64,000 bases of DNA. Source: Sphyrna mokarran (taxonomy: Eukaryota). The position numbers and the translations under genes were made by a program. The notes below the pieces were generated by a model, which saw only the letters and a program-made list of their open reading frames with translations, made no database searches and was not told where the DNA came from. The DNA lies in assembly GCA_024679065.1 (NCBI GenBank), contig JAGIQG010000002.1, forward strand, positions 116,622,001 to 116,686,000, read 5' to 3'. The stretch's first letter is position 1. Each line of letters opens with the position of its first letter. Of this stretch, positions 2,090 to 53,456 are shown one piece after another.

Positions 2090-3312
2090 GTCAGAATTTT
2101 TGCCTTCCTGGAGTGGTGGTGGGTGAAGTTGGCACCAGCAAGTATACAATTTATTTAAAGACATCCATACAAACTAATAACAGGTGCATATATGGAGTAC
2201 AAATTACAGAACTCTTACCTATGGTACCTAATTATCTGACTAGATTTGGGCTCATGGCATTTTCACATTGAAAACCTACTAAAGGTATGAGTTGGGCTCC
2301 TGTAGCATGGATGCAAAGCACAAGCCAGAAAATATGAGCATACATGCTGAAGAAGCATATCTCCAGTTGGCTTTAAAAACTCTTAGTTCTTCCATGACTA
2401 TTGAGTTCCAACTTGCATCTTAGTCACCCAACATACTGCAAGTTTGGAAGGAACTGGTCTGAGTCACTGCACAATGATCTTAAGCCAGTTAGGTTGTTGT
2501 GTTTGATTCAGAGCAACAAAGGAGTCCAATTTAGAAAAGATAGTATCATCTGTTCATGAGTGGCACAGACTGTAAATGCATTTTTGTTATTGGATTGCTA
2601 TAAATTTGCTGGTGCCATTTTAATGCTTGGAGGCAAACCTCGTAATTGAAAGCTGTAGTATCCCATTCCCTGTCTTATGTTCATTTTCATAGTCAAGCAA
2701 ACTGTGGCATTTATATGCTGAGGATTTCTTTATTACCAAGACTTTTGTTAAGTTTGGATAAAATTAGCATTCTTTTTAAACATTTGGAATGATTACAGAA
2801 AATGTTATTTTGTTATGGCTAAGTTTCCAAAGGAAGCAGGGATAGGGATGCTACAGTTACAAAAGCTTTGCTTTGATGTTACTTCCTACAGTGGTGGTGA
2901 TGGCTTTATTTGGTTTTTGGATGAACAAAAAGTTTCAGATTCCACCAAACTGTTATGTTAACCACAAACCCTACCACTAGCATTTGTATATCATAACTTA
3001 AGCCTTCATTTCATTCATTGTGATCACAATGTGAATATAGACTGTGTGCTGTATTACCTGAATATATTAATTCAGGCTGATTAATGAATTCACTGCAAGA
3101 TATGTTTCCTCAGTTTGGGAATAAAGCTGCTTAATTTGCTACCACTTTGGTATATCTGCACCTTCCCTTTGGCCTTTCCGATGTGTATAAACCTTTTGTC
3201 TTCTATAGCTTTGGAACATTTGACGTCTGATTGTAAAGAGATTGGGTAACTTTTAATGAAGGCTACAGGAACTTACACAATTCCTTGCTCAGAAGAGGCT
3301 GAAGTACTGGTT

Positions 3313-3518
3313 AAAAGCAAATTACTGGGGATGCTGGAATCTGAAACAAAAACAGAAAATGCTGAAAAATCTCAGCAGGTCTGACAGCATTTGTGAAGAG
3401 AGAATAGAGCTAAACTTTTCAAGTCTGAATGAATCTTCATCAGTGTTCATAAGAGCTTGAAATGTTAGCTTTGTTGTCCATAGATACTGCCAAACCCACT
3501 GAGATTTTTGTTCTTGTT
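3313..3518. mobile_element. Family B foldback mini-element with hammerhead motif
   Basis: 15-bp TSD gctgaagtactggtt / gctaaagtattggtt (13/15). Tail aaaagcaaattactggggatgctggaatctga. - strand CTGATGA-A-GATTC(attca)GACTT-GAAA at 3417-3443. Confidence 0.8.
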
Positions 3519-8795: not shown

Positions 8796-10490
8796 GGGCC
8801 ATGCCGATCCCAAAAGATAGTGCGTGGATCTAAAACTCGGCTTCACACCCGACGCAAAAGTTTGCAATCATCCCTGCCCCTTTCTAATGGCATGAGTCCA
8901 ATTAGCATATTTAAAGTAGAATTTAAACATGTACAGCCCATTCAAAACCCAGTGCATGGAATCTTCCAGCCTTTGGGCACTGCGTGATCTGGCACGATGT
9001 TCACACACTCTGAGAATATTAAGGCTCCTGGGTGGTTGGGGACGTAGCTAGGCAGTGTCTATTGAGCAGTGCCCGCTAGGTACCTCAGCACTCCAGTTGG
9101 GCACTGCTTGTGTGCCAGGAGGTGGGGACTGGATGGGAGATAAGTGGGCAGGATTGTGCAAGGGTAGATCATGATGGCAGTCAGTCAAGGGGACTCACAG
9201 GAAGGATCCAATGTGGGCAACCCGTGTTCAGAGATGTGAAATATGCCACCAATGAGGAGGAGTGGGTCCTAATGTCCATGGAGAGTGGGAGAGAATTTCC
9301 CAGTGCACTTAGAGATAAGGATGCCCTTATAGAACAGTGCCTGAGCATTCTGAAGCCAGGCTCACCATTTTATTAAGGCTGCGTTTCTCCAACTTCCCCA
9401 GTATTGGTGCAAAGCTCCCAACTCTCCAAAGAAATGAGTGAGTGTGGGAAGATTACGGTGCGGAGCGCACCTGAGAGACCGGTGTAGATTCACTTTGTTA
9501 TTCTCGCTGTTATCTTTCACATAGGGAGGAATTTTTCCAGAACATTTCTAAGTGTCATAACAACGAGAAACATGATGTGAATCATGCTGGGCTCTGAGCG
9601 AGCTCCGTATCGCAATCCTTCTGCATTCATTTTATTGTAGAGTTGGGAGCTTGCCGCCAGTACGGGGAAGTGGTGGTGATGGGGGGGAGCAGAGGGAACT
9701 TAAACATGCTGGTGAAATCAGCTTCAGAGCAGTGTGCTGTGTTGTTGTAAACAACAGCCCAATCTCATGGCTCACGGTGCACAGCCCACCACTCTCAGAC
9801 ATTGGGTCCTCTTTTCCTCACCCGTCCGACCCACCTACATCAGCAACATATCCTCTCCTCGCCCTGACACTGGTCATCTGCACCAGGACTATCCCACTAG
9901 GTCCCCTGTCTGACCCCGACATGCCACCCCCTATATTTCCTCAGCTATTCCCCCTCATCATTGTGACCTTTGACATGCCCTACCCCCCTATCATGACCCC
10001 CTTTGCGATTCACCCCTACGTGACTCACCCTTATAAGACTCCCCTGCATGTGTTCCTCCTCCCCTCCGGCATTGCCGCCCTACTTACCTGGCATGCTGAT
10101 GCTGCCTGATATCCACTGCCGGGGTGTCTGGTGGGCACTGCCGGGGTGTCAGGTAGGCGCAGCCTGACTTGCAGTGTCCACCATGCCCCCCCGCCATCAC
10201 CTGCCCCAGCGTGACCAGTTCGCCAGGTCTGCAGTAGTGTTTCACAGTGGACATTGCATCTCGTCAGGGAGATGGGAGACATGCATGGTGAACTCCCTAA
10301 CGGTATTGAAATCCAGCCAATCTCATGCTAATGAACTTCACATCCTTCCTGGGCATGAAGCATTCACACTCCTTGGAAGAAGCCAGGTAGATCAGAAGTT
10401 TTTCTTTTGCGCTAGGTGCGAATCAAATTTTTAGCTTAGCATGCTATTTTCCCTGACGGCCTAGCGCAGCAAGGTCGTAAAATTGTGCCC
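8796..10490. mobile_element. Probable Harbinger-type non-autonomous element(s) in the CARMIL1 intron
   Basis: Begins GGG and ends gtaaaattgtgccc; flanks cta / tta resemble a 3-bp TWA TSD; G-rich then C-rich interior. May be composite. Confidence 0.4.
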
Positions 10491-13872: not shown

Positions 13873-13999
13873 TGATGTAGAGATGCTGGCGTTGGACTGG
13901 GGTAAACTCAGTAAAGTTTTGCAACACCAATTTTAAATCCAACCAATTTTACTATCAAATAAATTGGTTGGATTTAAAATTGGTGTTGCAAGACTTTAC
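13873..13999. mobile_element. Family A Penelope-pLTR-derived foldback mini-element
   Basis: 12-bp TSD caagctcagcta (13861-13872 / 14000-14011); tail 13873-13910; near-perfect 39-bp inverted arms. Confidence 0.85.
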
Positions 14000-14851
14000 C
14001 AAGCTCAGCTAGCCAGAACGAAGATCTTCTGATGTGGATGGTGTGCGACATGGTGTATTGTTTTTTAGTCACAAACATAGGTTTGAAGTTAGGTGAAATA
14101 AACACCTATAAAACTTCATTTTCTACACTCACTTGAAATGATACCAAAATACCAAAAATAATAGATTCACTGCTGCCTGGAAAATAAAACTTAATGATTA
14201 ACTTAATAATCTTGATCATTTGCATTGAGCCTTGTTTCAGTATAACGTACTTTGAATTCACCTACTTAAAGATTGGGGAAGTACATAACATGAGGACACA
14301 ATGTGTATGACTCTGATCACCAGGAGGATTCAATTGCTACATCCCTGTTATTTTGACTGAATTCTTTGATTGTTGCAAGTTGTTTTTTTTATTGGTAGCT
14401 GTCCATTTACTTATTATGTTTTCATATGTTTGTAATAGTGCATTATTGGTTGCTTTTCGTGGCATTTGTTCATTAGTACATTTCTTATCTATTCAATGAT
14501 ATTTTACTGTTCTTTGAAGATGAAATGTGAGCCAGTCAACTACAAGGGGATGTATATAAATGCACACTTGGCACAAGTCATTTCTAATTCTGAGATCTCC
14601 ATGTAATCTGGAGCATGGTTAAATCAACATATGAAGAAGGACAAGAAAGATCCTCTGCTTTGGCCACATAGCACCAGATGCATCCCAAAAGATAGTGTCC
14701 TCACCAACTTATGGAAAAACAATGGGGAAATTTATCTCTGATTTTTTCCAGAAACGCCACTCTTTTCCATAAATCTACTGATTTGCTAGTTTTTCCCTTC
14801 GGTAATGAAACATACACATGGACAGAGTCTGTTCTCTTTGTTATTCTAAAG

Positions 14852-15928
14852 CAGTTATTCCCAACCTTTTATATGTCATGGCACACCTCTATACTATATG
14901 AAAACAAGGGTTTCAGGCGTACTTCCTACTTTTCTCTGTCTTCCTCCCTTACTGGGAACTTTGGTTTTAGCTTTTCTGTGCTCTTGTCTGTTTTTCTGAC
15001 TTCTCACCGAGTCTCTTGTGTCTCCGAGGGTTTTTGTGTCCTTCTTGAGTTTTTCTGGGCGCATGAAGATAAAGGTTTATCTTCAGCTCCAAGTCCCGTT
15101 GATCACGCACATGGGCCTGACCAACATAAAAAAATCTTAGTCACAGTTTCTTCCAGCTGGCGGATCTATGGGAGGCCCAAGATTTGTCAGGTCGTGGAGA
15201 TGTCAATCATAGAGCAGAAGTCAAAGGTTTTATTAGCTTTTATTGGTAGTGGGATTGAATTTCGGAGCCGCAACGTCATGTTGCAACTGTACAAAACTCT
15301 AGTGCGGCCGCACTTGGAGTATTGTGTACAGTTCTGGTCCCCACATTATAAAAAAGATGTGGAGGCATTGGAGAGGGTACAGAGGAGGTTTACCAGGATG
15401 TTGCCTGGTATGGAGGGCAGGTCTTATGAAGAGAGGCTGAGGGATTTGAGGTTGTTTTCGTTAGAAAGGAGGCGGCTAAGAGGGGACCTAATCGAAACAT
15501 ATAAGATGATTAGAGGTTTAGATAGGGTGGACAGTGATAGCCTTTTTCCTAGGATGGAGAAAGCTAGCACGAGGGGACACAGCTTTAAATTAAGGGGTGA
15601 TAGTTATAGGACGGATATCAGAGGTAGGTTCTTTACCCAAAGGGTGGTTCGGGAGTGGAATGCCCTGCCTGCAGCAGTTGTAGATGCGCCAAGTTTGGTG
15701 GCGTTTAAGAGGTTAGTTGATAAGTATATTGGAAGAGAAGGGAATGGTTTAGTTTGGAGGGGCATTGCTTTTTATATTGGTTGGCGCAACATCGAAGGCC
15801 GAAAGGCCTGTTCTGTGCTGTAATGTTCTATGTTCTAAGATTAGATTTAGTTTAATTACATGAATTTTGAATGTATTTTCATAGCACTCTTGGAAGATGT
15901 GCTGTGGCACACTGGTTGGAAACCACTG
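14852..15928. mobile_element. hAT (Charlie-like) MITE interrupted by a CR1-linked insertion
   Basis: TIRs cagttattcccaacc / ggttggaaaccactg; 8-bp TSD ttctaaag / ttctaaaa, resembling the NTCTAGAN preference. Confidence 0.75.
15229..15837 (+). mobile_element. Young CR1/HER1-type LINE 3' fragment
   Basis: [21 protein letters not shown]...RRRLRGDLIE...TRGHSFKL...FFTQRVV; tail taatgttctatgttcta. Confidence 0.95.
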
Positions 15929-17224: not shown

Positions 17225-19523
17225 TGCAGTGCTGATGATGACTGGGAACGCTTCAGGGATGCTGTCCATACATCTGCATTGAAGATGCTCGGACCCTGTA
17301 CCCACAAGCAGTGTGACTGGTTCGATGAGAAGGATGAGGAGATACAGGCTCTACTTGTTGAAAAGCACCATCTTCATTGGGCCTGTCAGAATGACCCATC
17401 ATCAGCTGCCAAGAAAAATGCTTTTGCCGGTGCTCACAGAACAGTACAGAACAAATTGCGTAAAAAGCAGGATGCCTGGCTAAGCGCCAAGGCAAATGAA
17501 ATATAGGGATACGCTGACAGAAATGACTTAAAACAGTTCTGTGAAGTCCTTAACACTCTCTATGGATCTTAATCTCTCGGGAGATCCCTCCTGCTCAGTA
17601 CAGATGGTACAGAGAGGGCTCAGATCCTGCAGAGATGGGCTGATGACTTTGAAGCTGTCCTCAACCAACCGTCATCGTGAGTGATGAGGCAATAGACAAG
17701 ATTTCCCAGGTTGATATCAACAGCGTCATGGATGACTCACTGGTAGTAGCCAAAGTCACAAAAGCTGTCAGCTAGCTATCCAATGGCAAAGCCACAAGGA
17801 CACATCCCATACCCGTAGAGATTTGCAAAGCTGCTGGTCCTATATTTATCGAGAAGTTCACCCAGTTGTTCCAGTCCTTTTGGAAGCAAGGATCCATTCC
17901 TCAGGAACTTAAAGATGCTTCCATCGTACACCACTACAAGAGGAAGGGCAAAGGGCAAGTATGCAACAGCCACCAAGGAATCTCGCTGCTCTCCATCACA
18001 GGAAAAACCCTCAGAAGAGTCCTGCTAAATTGTCTGATCATTCATCTGGAACTGAGCCTGCTGCCAGAGTCATAGTGTGACTTCCGCAAAGGTTGCGGGA
18101 CTATTGACGTGATTTTTGCTGCGCACCAACTTCAGGAGAAGTGTCATGAGCAGAATTGCGAGCTCCACACAGCCTTTGTTGACCTTGCGAAAGCCTTCAA
18201 AACTGTAAGCTGTCAAGGTCTGTGGAGGATCATGTCAAAGTTCAGTCGCCTTCCCAAATTCATTCAGATGGTACACCACTTCCATGATGGCATGATGCCC
18301 AGGGCATTGGATGGCAGAGAATCTTCTGCGACATTCCCAGTCACCAATGGCATCAAACAGGGCTTTGTGCTTGCACCCACACTGTTCAGCATGATGTTTA
18401 CTACCATGCTGAATGATCCCTTCCAGGACAGTGTTGCTGGAATCAGCCTCAAGTACAGAGTGGATGGGAAGGTCTTCAACCTTGGAGACTTCAAGCTATT
18501 ACCAAAGTGAAGGAGACTGTTCTGAGATACTTCCTGTTTGAAAGCGCCCTGCGCCCTGTATGCTGGCTCAGAGTCAGAGATACAAGTCAGAATAGACAAG
18601 TTTTCTGCGGTTTGTGACAACTTTGGACTCACCATCAACATTAAAAAGACCAAAGTCATACATCAGCCTGTTCCTCATGCACCGTACACAGAACCCATAA
18701 TCACAATCAAAGGACAGAAGCTATAGGCAGTGGACCAGTTCACTTGGCAGCACGCTCTCCCAAGCAGTGACTATTGATACAGAAGTTAGCTGCAGAATAG
18801 CAAAGGCAAGTTCTGCTTTCGGTAGACTGCGTTCCACTGTATGGGAACATTGAGGAATCAGCCCAGCAACAAAACTGAAGGTCTACAGTGCTGTGGTACT
18901 CTCTATCCTCCTGTATGTCTGTGAAATGTGGACTGTGTATCGAAGGCATGCAAGACAGCTCAATCATTTCCACGTGACTTGTCTTCGCAGAATATTATGC
19001 ATCAGATGGCAAAACAAAGTACCAGACACTGAAGTCCTCTCTAGTGAAAGTCTACCATCAGTCCACACACTGCTGATAAGAGTACAGACCCAGTGGGTAG
19101 GTCATGTCATCTGTTTGTCAGATGAGTGCATACCCAAGCACCTCCTTTTTGGAGAACTCTGTGTTGAAAGACGCTCACATGGAGGGCAGAAGAAACATTT
19201 CAGAGATACACTCAAGGCTTCTCTGTAGTCGCTGGACATAGATACAACCACCTGGGAAACCACCCTACCTAGCGCTGCCTCATTCACAAAGGCTGTCCAG
19301 CTTATAAAGTAAGGAGTACTGTTGAAGCACAACATAAACGTGAGCTGCTCAAGTCCAGAGCTATTAGTGCAACAACTACAATGCCTACACAAGTCTGTCC
19401 AATATGTGCCAGGACGTTCCATGCCTGAATTGGCCTGATCAGTCATTCTTTGGACAGGTCGCAACCACCGTCAAAATGACGAATGGTGTCAAGGTCCTCA
19501 TGGATGACGATGGACAAACAACA
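17225..19523 (+). mobile_element. RTE-clade LINE, 5'-truncated, degenerate
   Basis: RT motifs MIFAAHQLQEKC, AFVDLAKAF, GIKQGFVLAPTLFS, FGLTINIKKTKV; C-terminal LRRILCIRWQNKVPDTEVL, GGQKKHFRDTLKASL and a CPxCxRxF zinc-finger remnant. Confidence 0.9.
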
Positions 19524-20245
19524 TGTATTTGTAGAAGTTCTTCGGATTTTCCTACGCCTTATCTACCAAACAATCTTGTGTTCCTTTTTTGGCCTCCTGA
19601 TTTCTCTCTCGACTCTACTCCTACATCCCCTATACTCTTCAAGGGATTCACTTGATCCCAGCTGCCTATGCATGTCATTTGTCTCTTTTTTTCTTCTTGA
19701 CCAGGGCCTCAATAATCCAAGTCATCCAGGGTTCCCTACTTTTGCCTAAGAGAAATGTACTCATCTTGAACCCTGGTTAACACACTTTTGAAATCTCCCA
19801 CTTGCCCAGATGTCCCTTTGCCTTCCCAGAGACTCCCCCAATTCAACTTTTGAAAGTTCCTGCCTGGTACCATCAAAATTGGCCTTGCGCCAATTTAGAA
19901 TTTTAACTTTTGGAACAGACCTATCATTCTCCACAGCTATCTTAAAACAAACAGAATTATGGTCATTGGTCCCAAAGTGATGCCTCACTAACACTTCTGA
20001 CACCTGCTGTTCCCTATTTTCCAAGAGTAGGTCAAGTTTTGCCCCCTCTTTAGTCAGGCCATCCACATACTGAATGAAAAATTCCTTCTGAATACACTGA
20101 ACAAATTTCTCTCCGTCTAACTCTCTAATACTATGGCTGTCCCAATCAATGTTGGGTAAGTTAAAATCCCCTACTATTGTCACCCTATTTTTCTTGGAGC
20201 TATCTGTCATCTCTTTACATATTTGCTCCTTAATTTCTCGCCAAT
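19524..20245 (-). mobile_element. CR1 LINE endonuclease-region fragment
   Basis: IVGDFNLPNIDW...LDLLL...HFGTNDHNSV (AP endonuclease motifs). Confidence 0.9.
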
Positions 20246-20262
20246 TATTTGGGGATTTGTTT

Positions 20263-20427
20263 GGTGCTCCGGTTTCCCCTCACATTCCAATAATGTGCAA
20301 GTTAGGTTAATTTGCCATGTTAAATTTCCTCTTAGTGTCAGGGGAATAGTGAGGGTAGGTGGTATTGTCGGTGCAGGCTCGATGGAACCAAATGGCCTTT
20401 TTCTCTACTATAGGAATTCCGTGATTG
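20263..20427 (+). mobile_element. HE1-type SINE 3' half
   Basis: ggtgctccggtttcc...ggtgcaggctcgatgga...ggaattccgtgatt. Confidence 0.75.
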
Positions 20428-25309: not shown

Positions 25310-25542
25310 GATGTAGAGATGCCAGCATTGGACTGGAGTCAGCATAGTAAAAAATCTCACAACACCAGATTAAAGTACAACAGGTTTATTTGGTAGCATG
25401 AGTTTTCAGAACACTGCTCCTTCATCAGGTGAGCAATGAATAAAATAATTCACTCACTTAATGAAGGAGCAGCACTCCAAAAGCTCATGCTACTAAATAA
25501 GCCTATTGGACTTTAACCTCGTATTGTAAGACTTTTTACTGT
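25310..25542. mobile_element. Family A foldback element with two divergently oriented hammerhead motifs
   Basis: Tail gatgtagagatgccagcattggactggagtc plus ~90-bp inverted arms. Hammerhead motifs at 25398-25431 (-) and 25455-25489 (+). Homologous to 30399-30530. Confidence 0.85.
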
Positions 25543-27317: not shown

Positions 27318-27540
27318 CAGCAGCAAAAACAGAAAATGCTACAAACTTGTAGCAGATTAATCAGTGTCTGTGAAGTGATTAGGAGCCAGTGTTTATGTAA
27401 AAGCAAAATGCTGCAGATGTTGGAATCTGAAACAATCTCAGCAGGTCTGATAGCATCTGTGGAGAGAGAAATGTCAACATTTTAAATCTGGATAATCCTT
27501 CATCAGAGACAATATTTTGAGCCTGGACTCTTAACAACCG
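27318..27540 (-). mobile_element. Nested family B single-arm fragments
   Basis: 27398-27508 has tail + arm + - strand CTGATGA-A-GGATT(atcca)GATTT-AAAA, inside an older related arm starting near 27318. Confidence 0.6.
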
Positions 27541-28713: not shown

Positions 28714-29541
28714 AAGCTATGCCAAGGTCAAAAGAAGAAGGAAAGGAGGAGCTTGAGCAGATGACAGATAATGAGCTTAGCGAAGACAGGAGGTTGGAGT
28801 AAGGCAAGATAAGTTACTGGAATGAATTCTGATTCAGTGAGAAAGGCCATTCCTTGAGTTCGATGGCTGCTGGAAAGTGAAGCCAGGCAGGGACGATTTG
28901 ACAAACCGTAAGATCTGTAACTTCTGTCTGGAGTAAACTAAAATAATGTGATTGCTGTTTTTGTTTTGCATTTCCTGCATCTGTACTATTTTGCTTTTGT
29001 ACACAGTTCTCCTGATGTCTAACAACTTCAGAAACACTGAAGAAATTTCACTGTCAGCATTGGTAAGATAACATTTGGATTACTGTGTATAATATTGGTC
29101 TCCTTATTTCAGGAAGGATGTAAAAACATTGGCAGCAGTTTGGAGAAGATTTACTGGACTATTACCTGGAAGAGGTAATTTGCCTTATGAAAAAGATTGG
29201 ACAGATTAAACTTGTATCTGCTGAAGTTTGAAACAGAAAGGTGACTTGACTGAAACACAAAATCCTGAAGGGTTTTGGACAGGGTGGATATGGAGAGGTT
29301 GTTTCTTCTTGTGGTGGAATCTACAACAAGGGGTCACTGTTTAAAAATAAGTAGTCGCTCATTTAAGACAGAGAAGAGAATTTTCTTCACTCAGTAGATT
29401 GTGTATGTTTGGGACACTCTCAAAATGTGATGGAAGGCAGATCTGATAGATTCTTCATAATCAAGGAGATGAAAGGTTATGGGGGGTATGTGGGAATGTG
29501 GAGTTCAGGTCACTATCAGGTTGGTCGTGATTTTATTGTAT

Positions 29542-29972
29542 GAGGAGGCAGTGGCAAAGTGGTTTTGTCACTGGACTACTAATCCAGAGATGAAGAGGAT
29601 AGCCTCGAAAGCTTGTGAGTTTACTATCAAATAAATCGGTTGAACTTAAACCTGGTGTTGTCAGACTTCTTACTGTACTAATCCAGAGATCCCGGCACTG
29701 CTCTGAGGACCCAGGTTCAAATCCCACCGCAGCAGATGGTGAAATTTGCATTAGATAGAAATTGGAATTAAAGTCTAACGATGACTATGATACAATTGTC
29801 GCAAAACGCAGTTGGTTCACTATGTCCTTTATGAAAGGAAATCTGTCATTGTTACCTGGTCTGACCTACATATGACTCCAGAGCCACAGCAAGGGGCTCT
29901 TAAATGCCCACAGGGATGAGCAATAAATGTTGCCCAACAGTGACATCCACATCCCATGAATGAATTTAAAAA
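29542..29972 (+). mobile_element. tRNA-derived SINE with L2-like LINE tail (related - strand copies at 57813-58155 and 60387-60628)
   Basis: A box tggcaaagtgg, B box ggttcaaatcc, core ggttcactatgtcctttatgaaaggaaatctg, tail gatgagcaataaatg..catcccatgaatgaat. Sits inside a CR1 3' fragment (29070-30030). Confidence 0.8.
29592..29675 (+). mobile_element. Family A single-arm pLTR fragment inserted in a SINE
   Basis: 15-bp TSD tactaatccagagat (29577-29591 / 29676-29690). Contains GA-A-GAGG(atag)CCTC-GAAA-GC-TT-GTG. Confidence 0.8.
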
Positions 29973-30492
29973 ATTAATGGCAGAGCAGACTCGAGGTGGC
30001 CAAATGACCTATTCCTGCTCCTAATTCTTATCACGTGTGTTAGTATGACAGGATTAAGTAGCCCACCATATTGATAGCTGTCCACCATCTTAAATATTTA
30101 AACTCAAATGGATCAGACCAGAGACACCTGCAGTGACAACAGGAGTGTAAGAGTGAGAGAGAGAAAGAGAGCAAGGTGAGCCAACAAAGCTGATGGGTGT
30201 ATTTCCAAAATGGAGTGATGTCTGAGGATAACAGGTAGGTGATTTGTTGCTGTGTATTATGTTTCATTTTGGCACTAGAACCAGAAAACTAGATGCACTG
30301 TTTTAAATTTATCACCTAACAAGTAAAACTAATTAATACAATGTTCTCAGTGCTCTCACACAATGTGTCCACAAGATGGTGCTTTGGCTGTGTGAACTGA
30401 TGTGGAGATGCCAGCATTGCACTGGGGTAAACACAGTAAGAAGTTTCACCACACCAGGTTCAAGTCCAACAGGTTTATTTGGTAGCAAACAC

Positions 30493-30527
30493 CACTAGCT
30501 TTCGGAGAGCTGCTCCTTCGTCAGATG
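30493..30527 (-). ncRNA. Minimal type I hammerhead ribozyme motif in the Penelope pLTR (core intact)
   Basis: - strand CAT-CTGACGA-A-GGAG(cagct)CTCC-GAAA-GC-TA-GTG: CUGANGA box, stem II, GAAA box, palindromic AGCU mini stem III, UH cleavage site and stem I. Confidence 0.75.
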
Positions 30528-33304
30528 ACTGGGGAGTTCTGATCACAAACTGGGCATATAAAGGCACACACAGTTTACAGAATAATGAGAAAGTGAGTCT
30601 TTACAGCTAGTCAAGTCTTAAAGGTGCAGACAATGTGAGTGGAGATAGCATTAAGCATAGGTTAAAGAGATGTGTATTGTCTCCAGACAGGACAGTAAGT
30701 GAGATGTTACAAGCCCAGGCAAGTCATGGGGGTTACAAATAGTGTGACATGAACCCAAAATCCCAGTTTGAGGCCATCCTTGTATGCGGAACTTGCCAAT
30801 CATCTCTGCTCAGCGACTCTGCGCTGTTGTGAACCGTGAAGGCCACCTCGCAGAATGTTTACCCGAAGCTCAAAGAGTCCGAATGCCCGTGACCACTGAA
30901 GTGTTTGCCAACAGGAAGAGAACAATCTTGCCTGGTGATTGTCAAGCGGTGTTCATTCTTCCATTGTTGTAGTGTCTGCATGGTCTCCCCAATGTACCAA
31001 TGCTTGGGACATCCTTTCCTGCAGCGTATCAGGTAGACAATATTGGCTAAGTTGCAAGAGTACCTACCATGTACCTGATGAATGGTATTCTCACATGAGA
31101 GGATCGCATCAGTGTCAATAATTCCACAAACCCCAAGAGACCAATAGCGAACACAATGAGACAGCCAATGAACTGGAACAGCTGACAGAGAGATTCGCAG
31201 TGCAGCAACCAAAGAGAAAGAGTCCAATTGGACTCCTCCGGAAGGCCACTGACCTCAACTGGACATATACACCCAAGCCATCATGAGGTGCATCAAAGCA
31301 GATTCATCAACCGCACTCCTAGACAGCCCCAAACATCAGTCAAGCACAACATCATCATCAAAGCAGCAAAGGAGGGGCCATCGTCATACTGAACAGTTCA
31401 GATTACTGCAAAGTAGTGTACCGACAACTGAACAATGAGGAACACTACAGACAGTTAACTGCAGATCTGACTAAAGAACACACCCTTCAACTCAACATTA
31501 TGATCAAGACATTTGATCCAACCTTCAGAGCACCATCTGTGCTCTCATCCCATGTATCCCCGTGTTGGAGATCTCTACTGCCTCACAAGGCAAACACACC
31601 CGGCCGTCCCATTGTATCGGGCAATCCTGTGTGAGAACCTCTCCCACAACGTCGAGTGCATCCTGAAACCCATTGAACAAAAAACTCCCAGCTTTTGCCA
31701 TGACACTACAGACTTCCTACAGAAACTCAGCACACATGGAGAGGTTGAACCAGGAGTGCTCCTCGTCACAATGGATGTCTCGGCACTCTACACCAGCATC
31801 CCCCACGATGATGGCAACTGCCTCAGTGCTCAATGCCAATAACTGCCAGTTTCCAGATGCAATTTTATAACTCCTCTTCTTCATCTGGATCACAATGTCT
31901 TTATCTTCAACAACAAGTTCTTTATCTGGACACACGGGATAGCCATGGGGACCAAATTTGCACTTCAATATGCCAACATTTTCATGCACAGGCTCGAACA
32001 AGACTTCTTCACCACACAGGACCTTCAACTGATGCTATACTCTAGATACAGCAATGACATTTTCTTCCTTTGGACTTATGGTGAACAATCATTGAAACAA
32101 ATATATGGTGACATCAACAAGTTCCATCCCACCATCAGACTCACTATGGACTACTCTCTGGAATTGGTTGCATTCTTGGACAGACGCATTTCCATTAAGG
32201 ATGGTTACCTCAGCACCTCACTGTACCGCAAGCCCATGGATAACCTCATGATGCTCCGCTTCTCCAGCTTTCACCCAAGCACGTTAAAGAAGCCATCCCC
32301 CACGGACAAGCCCTCGGTATACACAGGATCTGCTCAGATGAGGAGGATCACAACAGACACCTCCAGACGCTGAAAGATATCCTCATAAGAACAGGATATG
32401 GTGCTCAACTCATCGATCGACAGTTCTGACACACCACAGCGAAAAACTGCACTAACCTCAGAAGACAAACATAGGACACAGTGGACAGAGCATTTTTTGT
32501 CATCCAGTAATTTCCTACACAGAAAAGCTATAACATTTTCTCCAGAGCCTTCAACATGTCATTGATAAAGATGAACATCTCGCCAACGCCATCCCCACAC
32601 CCCCACTTCTTGCCTTCAAACAACCGCACAACCTCAAACAGACCATTGTCCACAGCAAATCACCCAGCCTCAGGCAAACAGTGATCACGATACTACACAA
32701 CCCTGCCACAGCATCCTCTGCAAAACATGCCAGATCATCGACACAGACACGTGAGAACACCATCTACCAGGTACATGGTAGTATGCTTGCAACTCGGCCA
32801 ACATTGTCTACCTGATACACTGCAGGAAAGGATGTCCTGAGACATGGTACATTGGGGAGACCATGCAGACACGATGACAATAAATGAATGAATACCACTC
32901 AATAATCATCAGACAAGAGTGTTCTCTTCCTGTTGGGGAACACTTCAGCAATCACCGGGCATTTGGCCTCTGATCTTCGGGCAAGCATTCTTCAAGGCAG
33001 CCTTCACGACACACGACAATGCAGAGTCGCTAAGCAGAGACTGATAGCCAAGTTCCATACTTGTGAAGACACCCTCAACCGGGATCTTGGCTTCATGTCG
33101 CACTATCTATAACCCCCCACATCTTGCCTGGGTTTGTAAAATCTCACTAACTGTCCCAGCTGGAGACAATACACATCTCTTTAACCTCTCTCTCTACTCA
33201 CATTGTCTGTACCTTTAAGACCTGATTACCCGTAAAGACTCGCATTCCAACCATTATTTTGTAAATTGAGTTTATATGCCCTGTTTGTGAATAGAACTCC
33301 CACT

Positions 33305-33338
33305 CACCTGATGAAGGGAAGTACTCCAAAAGCTAGTG
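33305..33338 (+). ncRNA. Decayed hammerhead motif in the 3' pLTR
   Basis: CAC-CTGATGA-A-GGGaagtaCTCC-AAAA-GC-TA-GTG; the GAAA box has become AAAA, consistent with CpG decay. Confidence 0.6.
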
Positions 33339-33434
33339 GCTTTTGCTACTAAATAAACCTGTTGGACTTTAACCTAGTGTTGTGAGATTTCTTACAAGAG
33401 GCAGCAGTGCTAACCACTATGCCACTGTACTGCA

Positions 33435-34790
33435 CATTTTCATCACCACCAAAGTTAAATTGACTGGTTTGCTATAGAAAATTGTCCTGAATACACTCCA
33501 GAAATCTTTCCCTCCTCTGTTCTTTACACTACTATTATGCCAGTCTATATTCAGATAATTAGAAACTCCCATTGTAACAACTCTTATTCATGCATCTCTC
33601 TGTAATTTCCTAGCAAGTTTGTTTCTTTACATCTTTCCCACCAGTTGGTGGCCTATAGACTATACTGTGCAATTTAATTGCATGCTTTTGTTCCTTAGCT
33701 TTAGCCAAATTAGCTCTGCCCTTGACCTCTCCGGAACATCTCCTTCCTCCAACATTGTTATGTTCTTAGCCAATATTGACACTCCTTCCCCCTTTCATTC
33801 CTTTTCTATCTTTCTTGAAAACCTTGTGTCCAGAATATATAATACCAGTCCAACCCTTCTTTAAGCTAAACACAAAATGCTGTAGATGCTGAAATCTGAA
33901 ACAAAAACAGAAAAATGCTGGAAAATCTCAGCAGGTCGGATAGCATCTGTGGAGAGTGAGTAGAGGCAACGTCATCTAGCCTTGAAACATTGGCTCTACT
34001 CTCTCTCCACAGATGCTGTCAGACTTGCTGAAATTTTCCATCATTTTTCTGTTTTTGTTCCTTCTTTAAGCTAGGTGCCCTGATAACCACAACCACATAT
34101 TTCCACATAGCCATCAGAGATTGCAACTCACCAATCTTATTTATCACTCTCTGCATGTTCATGTACACAGTAACCTGAGGTTAGAATGAATTATTTTCTC
34201 CCTTATTCCGAACCTATCTAATAATTTAATATTTCCTATGCTAGTGCCATTTGTCTCTTCCAGTAGTTTGTGCATTATGGTAATCCATAGTCTCATAATT
34301 CATTCTGCCTCCACATCTCTGACAAATTAGTTTAAACTCTTCCTGCAAATTGCCTTGCTAAGATTTTAGTCCCACTCTGTTCAGATGCAGCCCATCAGAT
34401 TTGTACAAATCCCAATGCCCTCAGAGATCCTCAGAGTCTAAAGGCCTACTGCCTGTACCATCTTTCCAACCCATACATTCATTTGCTTTATACTTCTATT
34501 CCTATACTCATTCACGCATGGTACTGGGAGTAATTTAAGATTACCACTTTTGAAATCCTGCTTGCTAATTTCCTACCTAGCTTCCGAGGTTCTGACTGCA
34601 AGATCACATCTCTTTCTATCCATGTCATTAATACCAGTGTGGACCAAGAAAGCAGCTGTTCAGCACCATCAAGCTCCCTCCTCCTTAGTGTTCTGCTAGA
34701 ACATCCTTGACTCTGACACCAGGGAGTCAATATTACCATCCTAAATTCATATCTGCTGCTATAGAAATGCCTATTTATTATTATTACTCT
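33435..34790 (-). mobile_element. Old CR1 5' region (ORF1 esterase-like / endonuclease remnants)
   Basis: VILQSEPRKLGRKLASRISKVVI resembles the CR1 ORF1 SGNH domain; heavily degenerate. Confidence 0.65.
33869..34059. mobile_element. Family B foldback mini-element
   Basis: Perfect 14-bp TSD ccttctttaagcta (33855-33868 / 34060-34073); ~31-nt tail and ~73-bp inverted arms; inserted in a CR1 fragment. Confidence 0.85.
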
Positions 34791-35230
34791 CCCATCTCCT
34801 TCAAGTCATACTGGCATATGTGTCTATTGATGATGGCACTGTTTTAAAAAAAAGTTGCTAAACACCATTCAATACATTTAAATTCCTTCAACTAATCTCT
34901 CATGAAACAGACATTACTATTCAATAACCACTTGCAGCTGTCAATCAAACTGCTCACTTAACAGGCAACCCACTGTTAGATTGTAAAGTCAGTCATGCAG
35001 CATCAATCCTATAAAAAAAAGATCTCGGCATATATTATCAGATAGTATGAAACAAAGGATTTTTTTTAAATTTCATACTTTTTATCAAATATAATGTCCA
35101 TCAGAGTTAAATCACTTGACTATTCCAATGAACTTTGATAGTGCCAATGAGTTTTGATAAGTTTTTGACAGTCAGATAGTTATTTGATAGCTTGGATGAT
35201 TGTTTTATTGCTTAACAGGTCTTTTACCAT

Positions 35231-35402
35231 CTGGACAGTTCCTTGACTGCTTGGACAATTCTATAACTGCTTGGACAATTCTATAACTGCTTGGACAATT
35301 CTTTGACAGCTGAGACAATTCTTTGACAGCTGAGACAATTCTTTGATAACTTGGATAGTTCATTGATAACTTGGATAGTTCATTGATAACTTGGGTAGTT
35401 CC
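35231..35402. repeat. 20-bp minisatellite, ~8.5 units
   Basis: Units such as ttggacaattctataactgc, tgagacaattctttgacagc and ttggatagttcattgataac at an exact 20-nt period. Confidence 0.9.
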
Positions 35403-35959: not shown

Positions 35960-38065
35960 ATATTGAGATAAAAAAAATATTAAGACATTTCCTGAGATAT
36001 ATTCCAGGATGGTAAAGGAAAAAATAGTGGAAATTCTGACCATCATTTCCCATCTGCCCTTGGCTGCAGGTGTGATGCTAGAGGACTGGAGGACAGCTAA
36101 CATTGTGCTGTTGTTTAAAAATGGAAGAAAGAATAGATCAAGTAATTACAAACCAATCAACCTATTGGCTAACGGTATAAAAGAATGTCGCTTTGAAAAG
36201 AACAAGTTAATCAAGAACCGTCACCATGGAATAGTTAAGGGGAGGTTATGTCTGACTAATGTGATCAAATGTTTTGAGAAGGTAACAAGGAGGATTGATA
36301 AAGGTAGCATGTTTAATGTGGTCTACATATTTTAGCAAAACTTTTGACAAGATCTCACATGGCAGACTGGTCATAAACTTAAGAGCTCATAGAACCCAAG
36401 GGAAGGTGGCAAATTGGATCCAAAATTGGCTCAGTGGCAGTGAGCAAAGGATTATGATTGACAGATGTTTTTGTGAATGAAAGGCCATTTCCAGTGGTGC
36501 TTGCCATCGGGATCAGGACTGGGTCAATGAATCATATATAAATCTAAAGGATACAATTAAAATACTTGCAGAGAATACAAAAAAAATCACCTTGTTGTTG
36601 AGGGTGGCAAGAAAGTAGGATGATTTCAATTGTTTGTTTCAGGTGGGCAAAAGGAAGGCAAATGGAGCTCAATCCAGGGAAGTGAGAGCTAATATGGGAA
36701 GACAAAAAAGACAAGGGAATACACAACAGGATACTGAGATGTATAGTAGAACCAAGAGACTTTGTATGCATGTCCACAGACTCCTGAAGGTAACAGGAGA
36801 AAGATACATACAGAATACTTCCTTTCATTGGCCAAGTCCAAGAGACTATAAGAGCTGCAAAAAGTTGCTAAAACCATATATAAGAATGTTTAAACCACAG
36901 CTGTGCTATTGTGTTCATTTCTGATCACCATAAGTAGGCAGTCAAGTGGATAAAGTTGTTAAGAAGGCATATGGAGTCTTAGCTTTTATTGGTAGGGGGA
37001 TTGAATTTAGGAGCCGCAGCATCATGTTGCAACTGTACAAAACTCTAGTGCGGCCGCACTTGGAGTATTGTGTGCAGTTCTGGTCCCCACATTATAAGAA
37101 AGATGTGGAGGCATTGGAGAGGGTACAGAGGAGGTTTACCAGGATGTTGCCTGGTATGGAGGGCAGGTCCTATGAAGAGAGGTTGAAGGATTTGAGGTTG
37201 TTTTCGTTAGAAAGGAGGCGGCTAAGAGGGGATCTTATTGAAGCATATAAGATGATTAGAGGTTTAGATAGGGTGGACAGTGATAGCCTTTTTCCTAGGA
37301 TGGAGAAAGCTAGCACGAGGGGACACAGCTTTAAATTAAGGGGTATGAGTTATAGGACGGATATCAGAGGTAGGTTCTTTACTCAAAGAGTGATTAGGGA
37401 GTGGAATGCCCTGCCTGCAGCTGTTGTAGATGCGCCAAGTTTGGTGGCGTTTAAGAGGTTAATTGATAAGTATATGGAAGAGAAGGGAATGGTTTAGTTT
37501 GGAGGGGCATTGCTTTTTATTTTGGTCGGCACAACATCGAAGGTCGAAGGGCCTGTTCTGTGCTGTAATGTTCTATGTTCTATAAGGAGGTGCTCATACT
37601 AATGCAAAGAGAATTCATGAGGATGTTGCCAGGAATGGAAAATTTTAGCTATGAGGAAAGTTTGTTGGATAAGTGTTATTTTCCTTTGAACAGAAGAGGC
37701 TGAATGGAGCCTTTATTGAGATATGTAAAATTATGAGAGGACTAGAAAGAATGACTTGGAAAACATGCTTCTTTCAGCAGAGACATCAGTAACCAGGGGA
37801 CACAGATATAAAGTAACTAATAAAAGGATTAGGACAGGCTGGAGTATTTTTATTTATTTTTACTGAGAGGCTATTTGGGTTCTGGAACTCACTGCCTGAA
37901 AGGATGGTAGAGGCAGGAAACCTCATCACGTTGAAAAAAATCACTGAAGGTGCTGTAGCATTAAAGAGTAGGGACCAAGAGGAGGGATTAGATTGTATAG
38001 TTATTTTTTGGCTGGCATGGACAGGGTCGGAATGGCCTCCTGTGCTGCTGTATGTTTCCATTGGT
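35960..38065 (+). mobile_element. Old CR1 RT region interrupted by a young CR1
   Basis: EDWRTANIVLLFK..NYKPINL, HGIVKGRLCLTN, FSKTFDKISHGRL; resumes after 37582. Confidence 0.85.
36935..37582 (+). mobile_element. Young CR1/HER1 3' fragment
   Basis: Uninterrupted 183-aa ORF2 C-terminus plus tail taatgttctatgttcta. Confidence 0.95.
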
Positions 38066-45643: not shown

Positions 45644-47423
45644 GTAATTCAAAGTTACTTTATCAGATTCGATGCTAAATGCTAAAGTAATTTTAATGTT
45701 ACGTGGGACCATTGCATAAAAACCTTCAAGTTATTAATCTGGTTGTAAAATATAAATTAATTTCCCCATCATGTTTTGGAAACTTTTTGCGATCAAATTA
45801 AATTCTTTAATATTTCGGAAAGGATAAAACAAATGAATTTTACAAGATTTGCATAAAGCAGTTGTTGAGAGTGCACGCTTTTTGACACAGTTTTAAATTT
45901 GACTGTGTTTGACCCGCCCAGGTTTTATCCCACTCTAGACAAGGTTCATGAAGACTGGGATCTGCTTCCTTTTTTTTGTTTTCCACGGGCAAACTCTACC
46001 AATTTATTCCAGTGTTGCAGCTTGATGCTTTTAACACTGATCCAACTCCCGGAGTGATCCCATCTCTTGAACCAACAAATTAGTCTTACATGGGTTATTA
46101 TCTGAACAGGAGATGAGATGCAGTTGGTTATGTTTGGACATTAGCCCTATCAGAAACTGAATTCTATTTGGTATTTTCATCTTATTTTAAAAAATTTAGA
46201 TAATGGAACTAAATCTGGTGAAATCTTCAGTTTTGCCATTTGTAGAAAGTTGACCTTTTGAGAGTTCCAATGAAGAACGGGTGCAAGGTTCAATTCTGTG
46301 ATTCATGGGTAACAATGTCAGTATCTCCTTCCCTGTGGGGAAGTTATGAACTGTAGGTCAGGAATCTTTCCAGTTTGTTTCTATTTTCTTGGTTTAAAAA
46401 TGCTTTTGCTTTACAAAAGGACAAAGACAATTGAAATTGTCTTTCTGTTAAATGTCTGCATTTCTGAATGAATTATACTATCATTGGTGCAGATCAGGAC
46501 AATCTTCTCACTCTAGAACCAAATGTGTCAGCACCATGGAGCCAAGGACCTTACAAATGCTACTGGACATTCTGAGTACTCCCAGTGTTTTTGGTCCTTA
46601 ATTCCACTTTTTTGGCATTTGCAATATTTTGATGTGGAGTCCACCCAACATCTGCCTTCTAAAGGTACTGCTAGATGTCACTCTACTGTTTAGATAGTGT
46701 GGTGTAATTTCAATTGTGTTTGTCTTTTTACGAAGCAAATGTATTTTTTAACCAAGAAGGTAGGAAGATACGCTGTTATAGTCAATAAAAACATTTTGTT
46801 TGCAGTATATGCACTACTCACTCCATTCATGCCAATATGTAAAATGGTGGAACCTGGTCTTCAAGAGCCCTCACCTGAGGGTAGTATTTCTTCATTCTGA
46901 CTTCTGTATATCCTTTTGGAACAGCAGCAGTTGAACAGAATCACTACACTTCCAAAGCAAGCTGATCATTTTAAAATTGCAACTCTTAAGTAGCTCCGGC
47001 ATTAGAGAGACCAATGTCTGTTAAAGTAGTTTTTCGTCACCTTTTAAAGCAATCTGGTCAGCCCTCTTATTCAGTCATTTTCTGAGTGTTGCAAAGAGTT
47101 GCACATCTACCTAGAGGACAAATGAAAGTTTGAATTTAAAAAAAACTTTTAATACATGAATAATAAAGGCAACTTAGTGAAATCAACCTAATAATAAAGT
47201 GCCTCAAACTCATACAGTTTTAATCCTAAGTATGCAAGATGTTGATGCTCCCAATGTTGTTTTCTAATAAGTTCAATCCTACTTGCAATATTATATTACT
47301 TATTCTATAACAAATGTTTTTCAGGCAGAAGTTCCAGAAAATGGCTGTTTTTACTGATCTTATTCAATACTTCCACAAATGATTTTATTAAAGTCATTAC
47401 ACTGTTTGTTGAACTCTCCCTAG

Positions 47424-48174: not shown

Positions 48175-50307
48175 TACTGCAGGGCAAGAATTATAGCTGG
48201 GGGAAAAGAAATTATGATGTGATTAGATGAGATTTAGGATGCATAGGATGTGGAAGGAAACTGCAGGGTATGGGCACAATTGAAATGTGGAGCTTCTGCA
48301 ACGAACTGTCCTTGATAAGTATGTACCTTTCAGGCAGGGAGAAAGTGGCCGAACGAGGGAACCATGGCATACTAAATAAGTTGAATCTCTTGCGAAGAGG
48401 AAAAAGGAGACTTGTGAGACATGAAGGCTCAGTTAGGGCTTTTGAGAGTTACAAGTTAACCAGAAAGGACCTAAAAAGAGAGCTAAGAAAAGCCCGAAAG
48501 AGACATGAGAAGTCTTTTGCAGGTAGGATCAAGGAAAACCCTAAAGCTTTCTAAAGATATGTCAGGAATAAAAGAATGACTAGGGTAAGATTAGGGCCAG
48601 TCAAAGACAGTATTGGAAAGTTGTGTTTGGAGTCTGAAGAAATAGGAGAGGCGCTAAATGAATATTTTTCATCAACATTCACACAGCAAAAAGATAATGT
48701 TATCGAGGAGAATACTGAGATACAGGCTATTAGACTATTTGGGGTTGAGGTTCATAAGGAGGAAGTGTTAGCAATTGTGGAAAGTATGAACATAGATAAG
48801 TCCCCTGGACCGGATGGGATTTATCCTAGGATTCTCTGGGAGACTAGGGAGAAGATTGCAGAGCCTTTGGCTTTATCTTTAGGTCATCATTGTCTACAGG
48901 AATAGTTCCAGAAGACTGGAGGATAGCAAATATTGTCCCCTTGTTCAAGAAGAGGAATAGAGACCATCCTGGTAATTATAGACCAGCGAGCCTTACTTCT
49001 GTTGTGGGCAAAGTTTTGGAAAGGATTAAAAGAAAGGATTTATAATCATTTGGAAAGACAATTTGATTAGGGATAGTCAACATGGTTTTGTGAAGAGTAG
49101 GTCGTGCCTCACAAACCTTATCAAGTTCTTTGAGAACTGACCAAAGAGGTGGGTGAGGGTAAAGCAGTTGATGTGGTGTATATAGATTTCAATAAAGCAC
49201 TTGATAAGGTTCCCTATGGTAAACTATTGCAAAAGATATGGAAGCATAGGATTGAGGGTGATTTAGCAGTTTGGATCAGAAATTGGCTAGCTGTAAGAAG
49301 ACAGAGGATTGTGGTTGATGGGAAATGTTCAACCTGGAGTTCAGTTACTAGTGGTGTACTGCAAGATGTGTTTTGGTGCCACTGCTGTTTGTTACTTTTA
49401 TAAATGACCTAGATGAGGTGTAGAAGGATGGATTAATAAATTTGCGATGACACGAAAGTTGGTGGAGTTGTGGACAGTGCGGAAGGATCTTGCAGGTTAC
49501 AGAGGGACATAGATAAGCTGCAGAGCTGAGCTGAGAGATGGCAAATGGAGTTTAATGCAGAAAAGTATGAGGTGATTCACTTTGGAAGGAGTAACAGGAA
49601 TACTCTAATGGTAAGTTACTTGGTAGTGTGGATGAGCAGAGAGATCTCGGTGTCCGTTTGCATAGATCCCTGAAATTTGGCACCAGGTTGATAAGGTTGT
49701 TAAGAAGACATATGGTATGTTAGCTTTCATTGGTAGAGAGATTGAGTTTCAGAGCAATGAGGTCATGTTGCAGCTGTACAAAACTCTGGTGCGGCCGCGC
49801 TTGGAGTATTGCGCACAGTTCTGGTCACTGCATTAAAGGAACGATGTGAAAACATTGGAAAGGGTGCAGAGGAGATTTACCAGGATGTTGCCTGGTTTGA
49901 AGGGAAGGTCTTATGAGGAAAAGCTGAGGGATCTGAGGCTGTTTTCATTGGTGAAGAGGTGACTTAATAGAGACATACAAGATCGTTAGAGGATTAGATA
50001 GGGTGGACTGTGAGAGCCTTTTTCCTCAGATGGAGATGGCTAGCACGAGCGGACATAGCTTTTAATGGAGGGGTGATAGATATAGGACAGATGTCAGAGA
50101 TAGATTCTTTATTAGTAGTAAGTGGAATGGCCTGCCTGCAACAGTAGTGGACTCACAAACATGAAGGGCATTTTAAATGGTCATTGAATAAACATATGGA
50201 TGATATTGGAATAGTTTAGGTTAGATGGGCTTCAGATTGGTTTCACAAGTCGGTGCAACATCAAGGGTCAAAGGGCTTGTACTGTGCTGTAATGTTCTAT
50301 GTTCTAT
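48175..50307 (+). mobile_element. CR1/HER1 LINE, ~2.1 kb 3' part, SCGN intron 2
   Basis: IKENPKAF, DKSPGPDGIYPRIL, VDVVYIDFNKALDKV; tail aatgttctatgttcta. Confidence 0.93.
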
Positions 50308-51150: not shown

Positions 51151-52771
51151 AAATGCTATTCAAAATACTGATAATAAGAAACTGCATACATTTCTGATTT
51201 CCAGTGCAGAATTGACAGTGTTGGAAATCCAGAGCTGGGAAACATGCTCAGATCTGGAAGCCCAGTACAGCTGGCACGAATCTGCTAAAGTCCGCTGGCC
51301 ATTGCACGAAAAAAACAGCACAGTGGGATGAGAGAATCACCCCCCATTGATGTTGGGCAGATTTTCAACATTTGAGTGCAAAGAATGGAGCAAATGTAAT
51401 CTGGCCTCTGGAGGATTAAAATTTCAAGAAACTGGGAGCAATAAATAACGAAATTTTATCGGTTTTTGAGGCATACTGAAATTCAGAAAAAATCAAATAT
51501 GGAGTTTGTAGAAATGAGCGCTTCCAATCCAAAACGTAATGCTGTATAAAAGCAATAGCCTGTGCACCATTGATGGTGAATCTTTCTGTTGAATTTGTTC
51601 TGTTACGAAGTCATTAGTTCAATTTTTTGGTTTTAAGACCAGAAGCTTTTTTGTGTAGGAGAATAATTTAATTTCAAATGCTGATGTCAATTCGGAATTG
51701 CTTTATTTGTTAGTGCGTGGAACAAAAGCCTGACATTGACTGTGGAATTTGTTTAATGTATGAAACTCAGTGTTTGAAGGAGATTTAGATTTAGGCAGTG
51801 GGTAGTGTGGTGATTTCAAGGTGAAATTGTCATGGAATATCAGGGTGACCTATTAGTGAAGTGTACTAAGTTGTCATGGGGTAAATGCTAGAATTCAATG
51901 TTAAGCAGGTAGTTACAGGACATTAAAAAGATCAAAATATAATCAGGCTAAGTCAACAAGGCTTTATCAAAGGGAAATTGTGTTTGCCAAATTTATTAGT
52001 TGTTTAAAGATATAGTAAGCAGAGTGGATAAAAGGGAACCAGTAGATATAGTGTATTTAGATTTCTAAAAAGGCATTTGAAGAGATACCAATGTCAAAGG
52101 TTAATGCTCGAGGCAAGAGCACATGGTGCTGGAAGTGATGTATTAATATGGACAGAGGATTAGCTAACTGACGGGGAATAGAGTTGGGAGAAATGAATCA
52201 TTTTCAACATGACAAAGTGTAACTGTCAGCGTGCCATTGGTCTCAACTATTTGCATCTATATTAAAGACTTGAATGAAGGGACACATTATTATAGGCAAA
52301 TTTTCTGATGTTACAAACAGAAGAAGGAATGCAAGTTGTGAGGAGGCTAAAACAGTCTGCAGAGGGATATGGATAGTTTATGTGACTGGGGAAAATGGCA
52401 TATGGAGTATAATGTAGGAAAATTGAGATTATCCACTTTGGCAGGAAGGATAGAAATCAGAGTATTGTGATAAGAGACTGCAGAGGATCTGGGTGTTCTT
52501 ATACACGAATCATGTTGGTACAGCAAGAAATTAGGATGGGAAATGGAATGCTGACTTTACCTCACAGGGGATAGAACATAAAAGCAGGAAAGTCTTGCCA
52601 TATCTATACATGGTATTAGTGAGACTGCATCTGGAGTATAGGAGTGATATAGTTACATTGGAAATAGTTCAGAGGACATTCATTAAACTGCTTTCTGGGA
52701 TGAAGGGGGTCTCGGATGAGGAAAGATTGAACAAAATCTTTCACAAACAAACAAAGATTGAACAAATCTTT

Positions 52772-53357: not shown

Positions 53358-53456
53358 TAAAATGGGCCTGTTTGAAATTTAAAAGAATGAGGGGTGATCT
53401 CACTGAAACTCAGAAAACCCTGAGAAGGTTTGACAGGGTAAATGCTGGGAGGATGT

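Follow-up and report, generated by a model that had tools for sequence, protein, structure and literature searches.

A segment of ~230 bases at 25310-25542, in a genomic contig of Sphyrna mokarran, carries a hammerhead ribozyme motif in each half, which raises the question of whether it is a mobile unit with working ribozymes or the residue of a larger element. We analyzed the whole stretch of 64,000 nucleotides in which it lies, referred to here as the window. The preliminary description of this locus had left two alternatives, a non-autonomous retrozyme-like family and abortive insertions of a Penelope-like element (PLE) with a stereotyped end.

The segment proved to be a hairpin made of a one-sided tail and two inverted arms (Table 1). 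The arms were 88 nt each and 81% complementary, with 71/88 positions identical, and 15 of the 17 differences between them were transitions, which is a neutral-decay pattern. Folding gave a single long hairpin for each strand (-103.3 and -122.8 kcal/mol; z = -12 and -17), and none of 200 shuffles was as stable, in agreement with the foldback anatomy described earlier. The tail lay outside the inverted repeat on the left side only, while the right arm had none; it was one-sided as first described, with a length of 36 nt rather than ~33 nt, and matched the tails at 30399, 13873 and 61050 at 80-83% over 35 columns. The hammerhead motifs, previously placed at the arm ends, were indeed found one in each arm, and their position was at the inner (5') ends. 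The arms are equal in length and may close on a 6-nt loop. The A+T-rich junction between them may be read in two ways: either the arms run 5 nt further around a 3-nt bulge, or the junction weakly resembles sequence from upstream in the PLE. As a continuation of that upstream sequence, it was not significant (p = 0.11).

Table 1. Coordinates of the foldback at 25310, its relatives and other annotated repeats in the 64-kb window
Feature	Coordinates	Strand	Remarks
PLE tail, 3' extension of pLTR, one side only	25310-25345 (36 nt)	-	aligns with tails at 30399, 13873, 61050
Left arm, inverted 5'-truncated pLTR copy	25346-25433	-	stops 5-6 nt upstream of hammerhead C3
Minimal type I hammerhead, core boxes intact	25397-25431	-	C3 at 25428; predicted cut between 25400 and 25399
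A+T-rich junction between arms	25434-25452	.	two candidate readings
Right arm, tail-less 5'-truncated pLTR copy	25453-25540	+	starts 6-7 nt upstream of C3 position
Hammerhead motif, core mutated (UUAAUGA, AAAA), stem III AGCU kept	25455-25489	+	motif alignment
Long PLE insertion, same outer architecture as 25310	30399-33395 (~3 kb)	+	homology, tblastn
Tail of long PLE	30399-30435		outer end of 30399 insertion
Inverted copy of long PLE, ~660-700 nt	30436-31097 (31131 by tblastn)	inverted
Best-preserved family-A hammerhead (CUGACGA, GAAA, AGCU palindrome, stem I closed)	30493-30527	-	descriptor and folding
Direct 5'-truncated copy of long PLE, ~2250 nt	~31147-33395	+	broken RT + CX4CxxC + GIY-YIG ORF
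Family-A mini-foldback, no hammerhead in either arm	13873-13999	.	12-bp target-site duplication perfect; arms 38/39 identical
Family-A solo tail-less arm, starts within hammerhead core	29592-29675	+	perfect 15-bp target-site duplication
Family-A asymmetric mini-foldback	61050-61192	.	short arm bears tail; longer arm starts at hammerhead 5' edge, small internal deletion
Family-B two-armed insertions	3310-3518, 33868-34059, 58894-59085, 61726-61919 (also given from 61723)
Family-B single arms	27398-27506, 53455-53590
LINE fragments	14696-15840, 18076-20279, 36934-37583, 49500-50307, 52535-53341, 54500-56801		Pfam: RT at 18076 and 56502, endonuclease at 19764

The tail and left arm matched 30399-30528 at 78% (E = 2e-25) and the right arm matched 33301-33395 at 78% (E = 9e-17), so that the homology to a Penelope terminus at 30399/33300 noted earlier was recovered at both ends of a long PLE insertion; further homology was found at 13874, 29624 and 61051. 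The 25310 element is a scaled-down version of the 30399 layout, consisting of tail, inverted copy and direct copy. It had rightly been called ORF-less, MITE-looking and Penelope-derived rather than a DNA transposon, the arms being collinear with the terminus of an element that encodes RT and GIY-YIG. Pfam matched none of the seven ORF fragments of the 30399 element, and its identity was therefore taken from homologues. Homologues of the broken ORF occurred in sharks (Mustelus, Heptranchias, Scyliorhinus and Chiloscyllium) at 60-70% identity. RVT_1 was detected by Pfam in 5/5 of the homologues scanned and a weak GIY-YIG match, below cut-off, in 1/5, and all four homologues placed by tblastn mapped across the element. 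A CX4CxxC motif preceded the endonuclease in the frame 32575-32754 and in 4/4 homologues. Since PMC8557442 (in the part available) gives this motif as a marker of the Neptune and Nematis clades and not of Penelope/Poseidon, the partner element classifies by its sequence as a Neptune/Nematis-type PLE. The spacer that follows the cut site was 7 nt shorter in both 25310 arms than in the 30399 element, indicating that the template of the former belonged to a sibling subfamily. We also noted a TATA-like motif in the pLTR (33271-33278 and 30553-30560), ~30 nt upstream of the family-A arm start, which makes a better TATA box on the antisense strand and echoes the bidirectional motif of Adineta pLTRs (PMC3846280, available part). 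A bacterial promoter scan of 33150-33420 gave 0 matches, with a model that does not apply to shark DNA.

A descriptor for a minimal hammerhead with intact core boxes gave two matches in the window, at 25428 and 30524, both on the - strand, and 0 matches in each of six random 64-kb Markov sequences. At 25310 the CUGANGA and GAAA boxes and the UH site were present in the - copy only, which read as previously given; the + copy, already described as decayed, had three core changes, reading UUAAUGA and AAAA instead of GAAA. The stem III 4-mer of the - copy was AACU, which is not self-complementary, whereas AGCU was present in 5/6 family-A motifs. The self-complementary AGCU is needed for stem III of a dimer, and this palindrome is lost from the - copy. 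Dimer cleavage was reportedly studied by Lunse et al. The - copy also had a C.A mismatch at the stem I pair adjoining the cut site. Its stem II probability in isolation was 0.005, as compared to 0.95 for the 30524 copy. Stem II probability was 0.000 in both full transcripts of the element and in all five co-transcriptional prefixes tested on the - strand. Forcing the ribozyme fold in the two transcripts cost 28.5 and 23.4 kcal/mol, and the penalty in a model undecayed foldback was 53.2 kcal/mol.

The preliminary description had expected an intact copy to contain a ribozyme whichever strand is transcribed. In the folding models this expectation failed: with the arms running outward from the centre, transcription of either strand reaches the antisense arm before the motif, which is therefore buried by pairing. 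The two motifs were inverted and only ~30 nt apart with one sense motif per strand, so that a transcript can undergo no double cut and release no monomer. Nearest-neighbour folding leaves proteins out, and the anole hammerhead is protein-assisted (PMC11167929, available part); as modelled, both motifs at 25310 are probably dead. The Rfam search proposed earlier returned no hammerhead family for the window, the - motif or the best-preserved copy, and gave only generic microRNA-hairpin matches, all below gathering thresholds. Since even the best-preserved copy had no match, Rfam was uninformative on minimal motifs. Across the six family-A motifs, stems were paired in 85% of cells as compared to 29-53% for slid controls, and stem II covariation amounted to 2 two-sided changes, which was not above shuffles (219/500).

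Family A comprised five insertions in the 64-kb window (25310, 30399, 13873, 29592 and 61051). Three of these had been listed as relatives of the 25310 element, and they are homologous to it, but they are different units: among the three minis there were two hammerheads at 25310, one decayed motif in one arm at 61051 and none at 13873, while 29592 was a single tail-less arm. The arms at 13911-13999 were 97% identical mutually and only 64-77% identical to other family-A arms, with a tail 80-86% like the other tails; this locus may be a young distinct subfamily or a product of arm-to-arm homogenisation. The solo arm at 29592 interrupts another repeat (29540-29960), which resembles a tRNA-headed shark SINE, and stem I of its subfamily could be 5-6 bp. 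A second pLTR-like family, family B, had a tail, inverted arms and its own minimal hammerhead with a palindromic stem III; the window contains no autonomous partner for it, and it is classed as a putative PLE family by architecture. Small family-B fragments at 8350, 27315, 28956 and 41910 were left out of the analysis. On the - strand of 53560-53590 the family-B motif core read UUUAACAA, and the sequence ran on upstream with no second arm; this motif is possibly a decayed U3-A8 hammerhead variant, as in Schistosoma (PMC4209133, available part).

Duplications of 12-15 bp enclosing the whole unit were found in 5/9 insertions tested, with scores of 9-15 (12/12 at 13873, 15/15 at 29592, 14/14 at 33868, 14/14 at 61723 and 13/15 at 3310). 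In the null set 4/400 random pairs reached 9, the level of the weakest insertion, and none exceeded 10. No target-site duplication was recognisable at 25310 (score 3, null-like) or at 30399, 61051 and 58894. The preliminary description had proposed checking whether copies share identical centres, and we found that they vary, with different junctions in 7/7 mini-foldbacks examined in the window from the two pLTR families. Among eight two-armed insertions, the tail was on the shorter arm in five and on the longer arm in two, the arms being equal at 25310. The mini-foldbacks probably do not form a foldback family, a conclusion that, like the others on families, rests on one 64-kb window.

Pfam matched 3/98 of the other stop-to-stop frames of at least 85 aa, all three being LINE-type RT or endonuclease, and the same scan identified no host exon near the 25310 element. 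The LINE fragments, presumably CR1-like, had 3' ends in common at 77-99%. There were no tRNA genes in the window. A decayed, G+C-richer inverted repeat at 9392-9671 (67% over 294 nt) was unrelated to families A and B and is possibly an old MITE. A 61-nt inverted repeat pair (82%) lying ~270 nt apart at 46378-46766 resembled the TIRs of an old non-autonomous DNA transposon, and 35215-35394 held a tandem array of ~9 copies of a 20-nt unit.

We then considered where the arms stop. The 18 arm 5' ends that were placed (partly by eye, and excluding the arm at 53455, for which no definite end could be assigned) included 8 within -7 to +7 of hammerhead C3, 8 downstream and 2 long ones. Under constant-rate truncation the tail probability of this cluster was 6e-6, or 0.001-0.014 on conservative recounts, for an interval picked after seeing the data and with arms of one insertion being non-independent. 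The clustering at the hammerhead 5' edge is thus suggestive only. In family B, three arms had their ends inside the stem II-stem III region. At 29592 the solo arm, which lies within a perfect duplication, starts at +1 to +5 of C3, indicating that the clustered end is independent of foldback formation. Truncation at the hammerhead cut site was rejected as the main cause of short arms, as the cluster lies ~30 nt upstream of the cut. A splice acceptor is one candidate cause by analogy with the D. virilis intron, which ends at helix I (PMC4209133) and has 46 nt of exon upstream of it (PMC2377424; both sources in part), and RT stalling is another candidate. Run-off at the template RNA 5' end is possibly to be favoured over both. 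A weak TATA-like TATAT was located 35-36 nt upstream of C3, ~30 nt ahead of the family-A arm start.

The outer architecture of the 25310 element has already been described for PLEs. According to the available parts of PMC8557442 and PMC3846280, a typical PLE insertion has an inverted 5'-truncated copy beside a direct one and carries, at one of its ends, a tail of 30-40 bp; EN+ elements (Penelope/Poseidon, Neptune and Nematis) share with 25310 this one-sided tail, the paired copies and the pLTR hammerhead. Such insertions are enclosed by a duplication of variable length, as were those 5/9 in the window, whereas none was recognisable at 25310. The 25310 element differs in that both copies are cut to ~90 nt, so that no ORF is left, and clustering of arm ends at the hammerhead 5' edge is not reported in the parts of these two sources available. 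Minimal hammerheads have been reported in PLE pLTRs, and dual ones on opposite strands, 100-700 bp apart, have been attributed in Schistosoma to truncated PLEs (PMC4209133, available part). The type I motifs in that source resemble family A in the CUGANGA box, the extra base before stem II, the G10.1 position, the GAAA box and the short stem I, and their palindromic 15.1-16.1 stretch corresponds to the AGCU of family A. At 25310, in contrast, both copies are decayed and lie much closer together, and Rfam detected not even the best-preserved family member. The 25310 element also resembles Anolis Poseidon PAc (PMC11167929, available part), which has two discrete 3' ends ~36 nt apart. From the start of stem II to the end of the tail there were 111 nt at 25310 and 118 nt at 30399, near the anole RT start at 111-118 nt, a likeness that may across clades be partly coincidence. 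PAc belongs to another clade, the shark element having the CX4CxxC linker, and short head-to-head products are not described in the available text of PMC11167929. A literature search, with most subscription papers and the supplements of PMC4209133 and PMC11167929 (which may show fish or reptile examples) outside its scope, returned no description of shark mini-foldbacks or of arm ends clustered at the hammerhead edge.

We consider it likely that the 25310 element is a minimal PLE insertion, now decayed, in which two short cDNAs were joined head to head, a single, old event that was dead on arrival. The parts of this account with direct support are the homology, the architecture, the duplications at the sister insertions, the differing junctions and the folding energies. 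The source would be a Neptune/Nematis-type PLE of a sibling subfamily of the 30399 element. Its RT-endonuclease would nick both target strands ~12-15 nt apart, as the duplications at sister insertions suggest, and each nick would prime a cDNA on PLE RNA, an outer RT start presumably giving the arm with the tail and an inner start the arm without it. Both cDNAs would halt near the hammerhead 5' edge, for a reason that we can only infer, and their 3' ends would then be joined head to head and filled in. Every foldback would thus be made afresh at insertion and not copied as a unit, and the hammerheads would be pLTR passengers, mutated at 25310 and locked in a ~90-bp RNA duplex in read-through transcripts.

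Several of these steps have a counterpart in the anole Poseidon protein (PMC11167929, in the part available), which nicks and extends both DNA strands and is predicted to be a dimer; RT starts at two internal sites, the gap between them being the tail, and insertion did not need hammerhead cleavage. These two-nick data are from a Poseidon-clade element in vitro, whereas the 25310 source is Neptune-type. The anole protein also needs sequence beyond the tail on its RNA (same source). The 25310 unit has no sequence beyond its tail, which by analogy would favour the account given above. A bolder proposal, possible but on balance doubtful, is that a dimeric double target-primed reaction yielded the stubs as 'strong-stop' products: RT from tail sites in the PLE RNA leader (or in a short SINE-like pLTR-only RNA) would run off the 5' end at the hammerhead edge on both nicked strands at once.

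The closest competitors of joining two cDNAs concern how the foldback arose. A non-autonomous foldback family, in which PLE machinery acting in trans copies whole a master hairpin of tail and two arms that stop at the hammerhead 5' edge, and parts of the palindrome centre are lost from the copies later, would account for one arm ending at the hammerhead 5' edge in 5/7 minis (25310, 61051, 3310, 58894 and 61723), and pLTRs can mobilise unrelated sequence in trans (PMC3846280, available part). Nevertheless, the 7/7 differing junctions leave no common internal structure at independent loci of this one window, and the minis stem from several subfamilies. The insertion at 13873 looks young from its perfect duplication and near-identical arms yet has no hammerhead, and at 29592 a solo arm with a similar end lies in a perfect duplication without any foldback. 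Moreover, PLE copying of a foldback should, as we reason, add a further inverted arm and tail, which was seen in 0/7. Self-priming would have a single cDNA bend back at the junction and serve as its own template, or an antisense template do so, as suggested for Adineta PLEs; the idea was put forward on the basis of junction palindromes (PMC3846280, available part). It fits the equal arms and possible 6-nt loop of 25310, the two insertions out of eight with the tail on the longer arm and the short overlaps at the 13873 and 61723 junctions. Against it, the tail-less arm reaches further in 5/8 insertions, and a copy of a single sense-RNA cDNA needs later deletion to give this arrangement. No tail can be added by snap-back copying of a long arm that lacks one; those five therefore need two templated events, unless later deletion reshaped the centres. 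Palindrome centres are unstable and prone to deletion, so that a copied family and self-priming both stay alive, each as an unlikely explanation and about equally so. Deletions after insertion, starting from one ancestral foldback, could account in part for the differing junctions and the arm asymmetry. Comparing the divergence of arms with that of duplications as a sign of two templates was too biased, and the sample too small, to be of use.

The remaining explanations would make the element a ribozyme-bearing or DNA-based unit. As a retrozyme-like element it would use its hammerheads on either strand to release or circularise RNA. It is short, non-coding and retro-derived with type I hammerheads, like metazoan non-LTR retrozymes, its size is within their range of 170-400 nt (PMC7229834, available part), and the minimal motifs are real, one with intact core boxes. 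In these retrozymes, however, canonical hammerheads lie in direct tandem repeats and release circular monomers (same source), whereas 25310 is an inverted pair of minimal motifs. With one sense motif per transcript it would give no double cut and no monomer; its motif is buried in the hairpin with a stem II probability of 0.000, its + core is mutated, its - copy has no dimer palindrome and the other family-A minis hold 0 or 1 motif. We consider this reading very improbable. The inverted rather than tandem motifs and the 7/7 differing junctions led us to reject the retrozyme-like family of the preliminary description, and abortive Penelope insertions with a stereotyped end, its other alternative, fit best. 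A MITE derived from a DNA transposon and bearing long terminal inverted repeats would likewise be short, ORF-less and flanked by inverted arms, but the arms are collinear with the terminus of an element with RT and GIY-YIG, the 36-nt tail extends past the inverted repeat at just one end, and the duplications vary from 12 to 15 bp, which leaves this origin scarcely credible.

The 25310 locus itself is ordinary decayed transposon debris. As a class, PLE stubs may nonetheless record how PLEs insert, a matter in which the origin of the inverted ends and tails was called unresolved in PMC8557442 and has been answered only partly in PMC11167929 (both in the parts available). The seven mini-foldbacks in 64 kb suggest, by extrapolation from one window, a very large genome-wide sample, and its arm lengths, tail sides, junctions and duplications could allow two-cDNA joining and self-priming to be tested against each other by sequence analysis, with no bench experiments. 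Such foldbacks also carry an annotation risk, since they resemble MITEs and score against unrelated microRNA precursor models (in this window always below gathering thresholds), and transcribed copies would be long double-stranded RNA. If the strong-stop reading is true, the foldbacks would amount to a very large fossil record, mapping the template 5' end and settling how the inverted-plus-tail ends of PLEs are formed.
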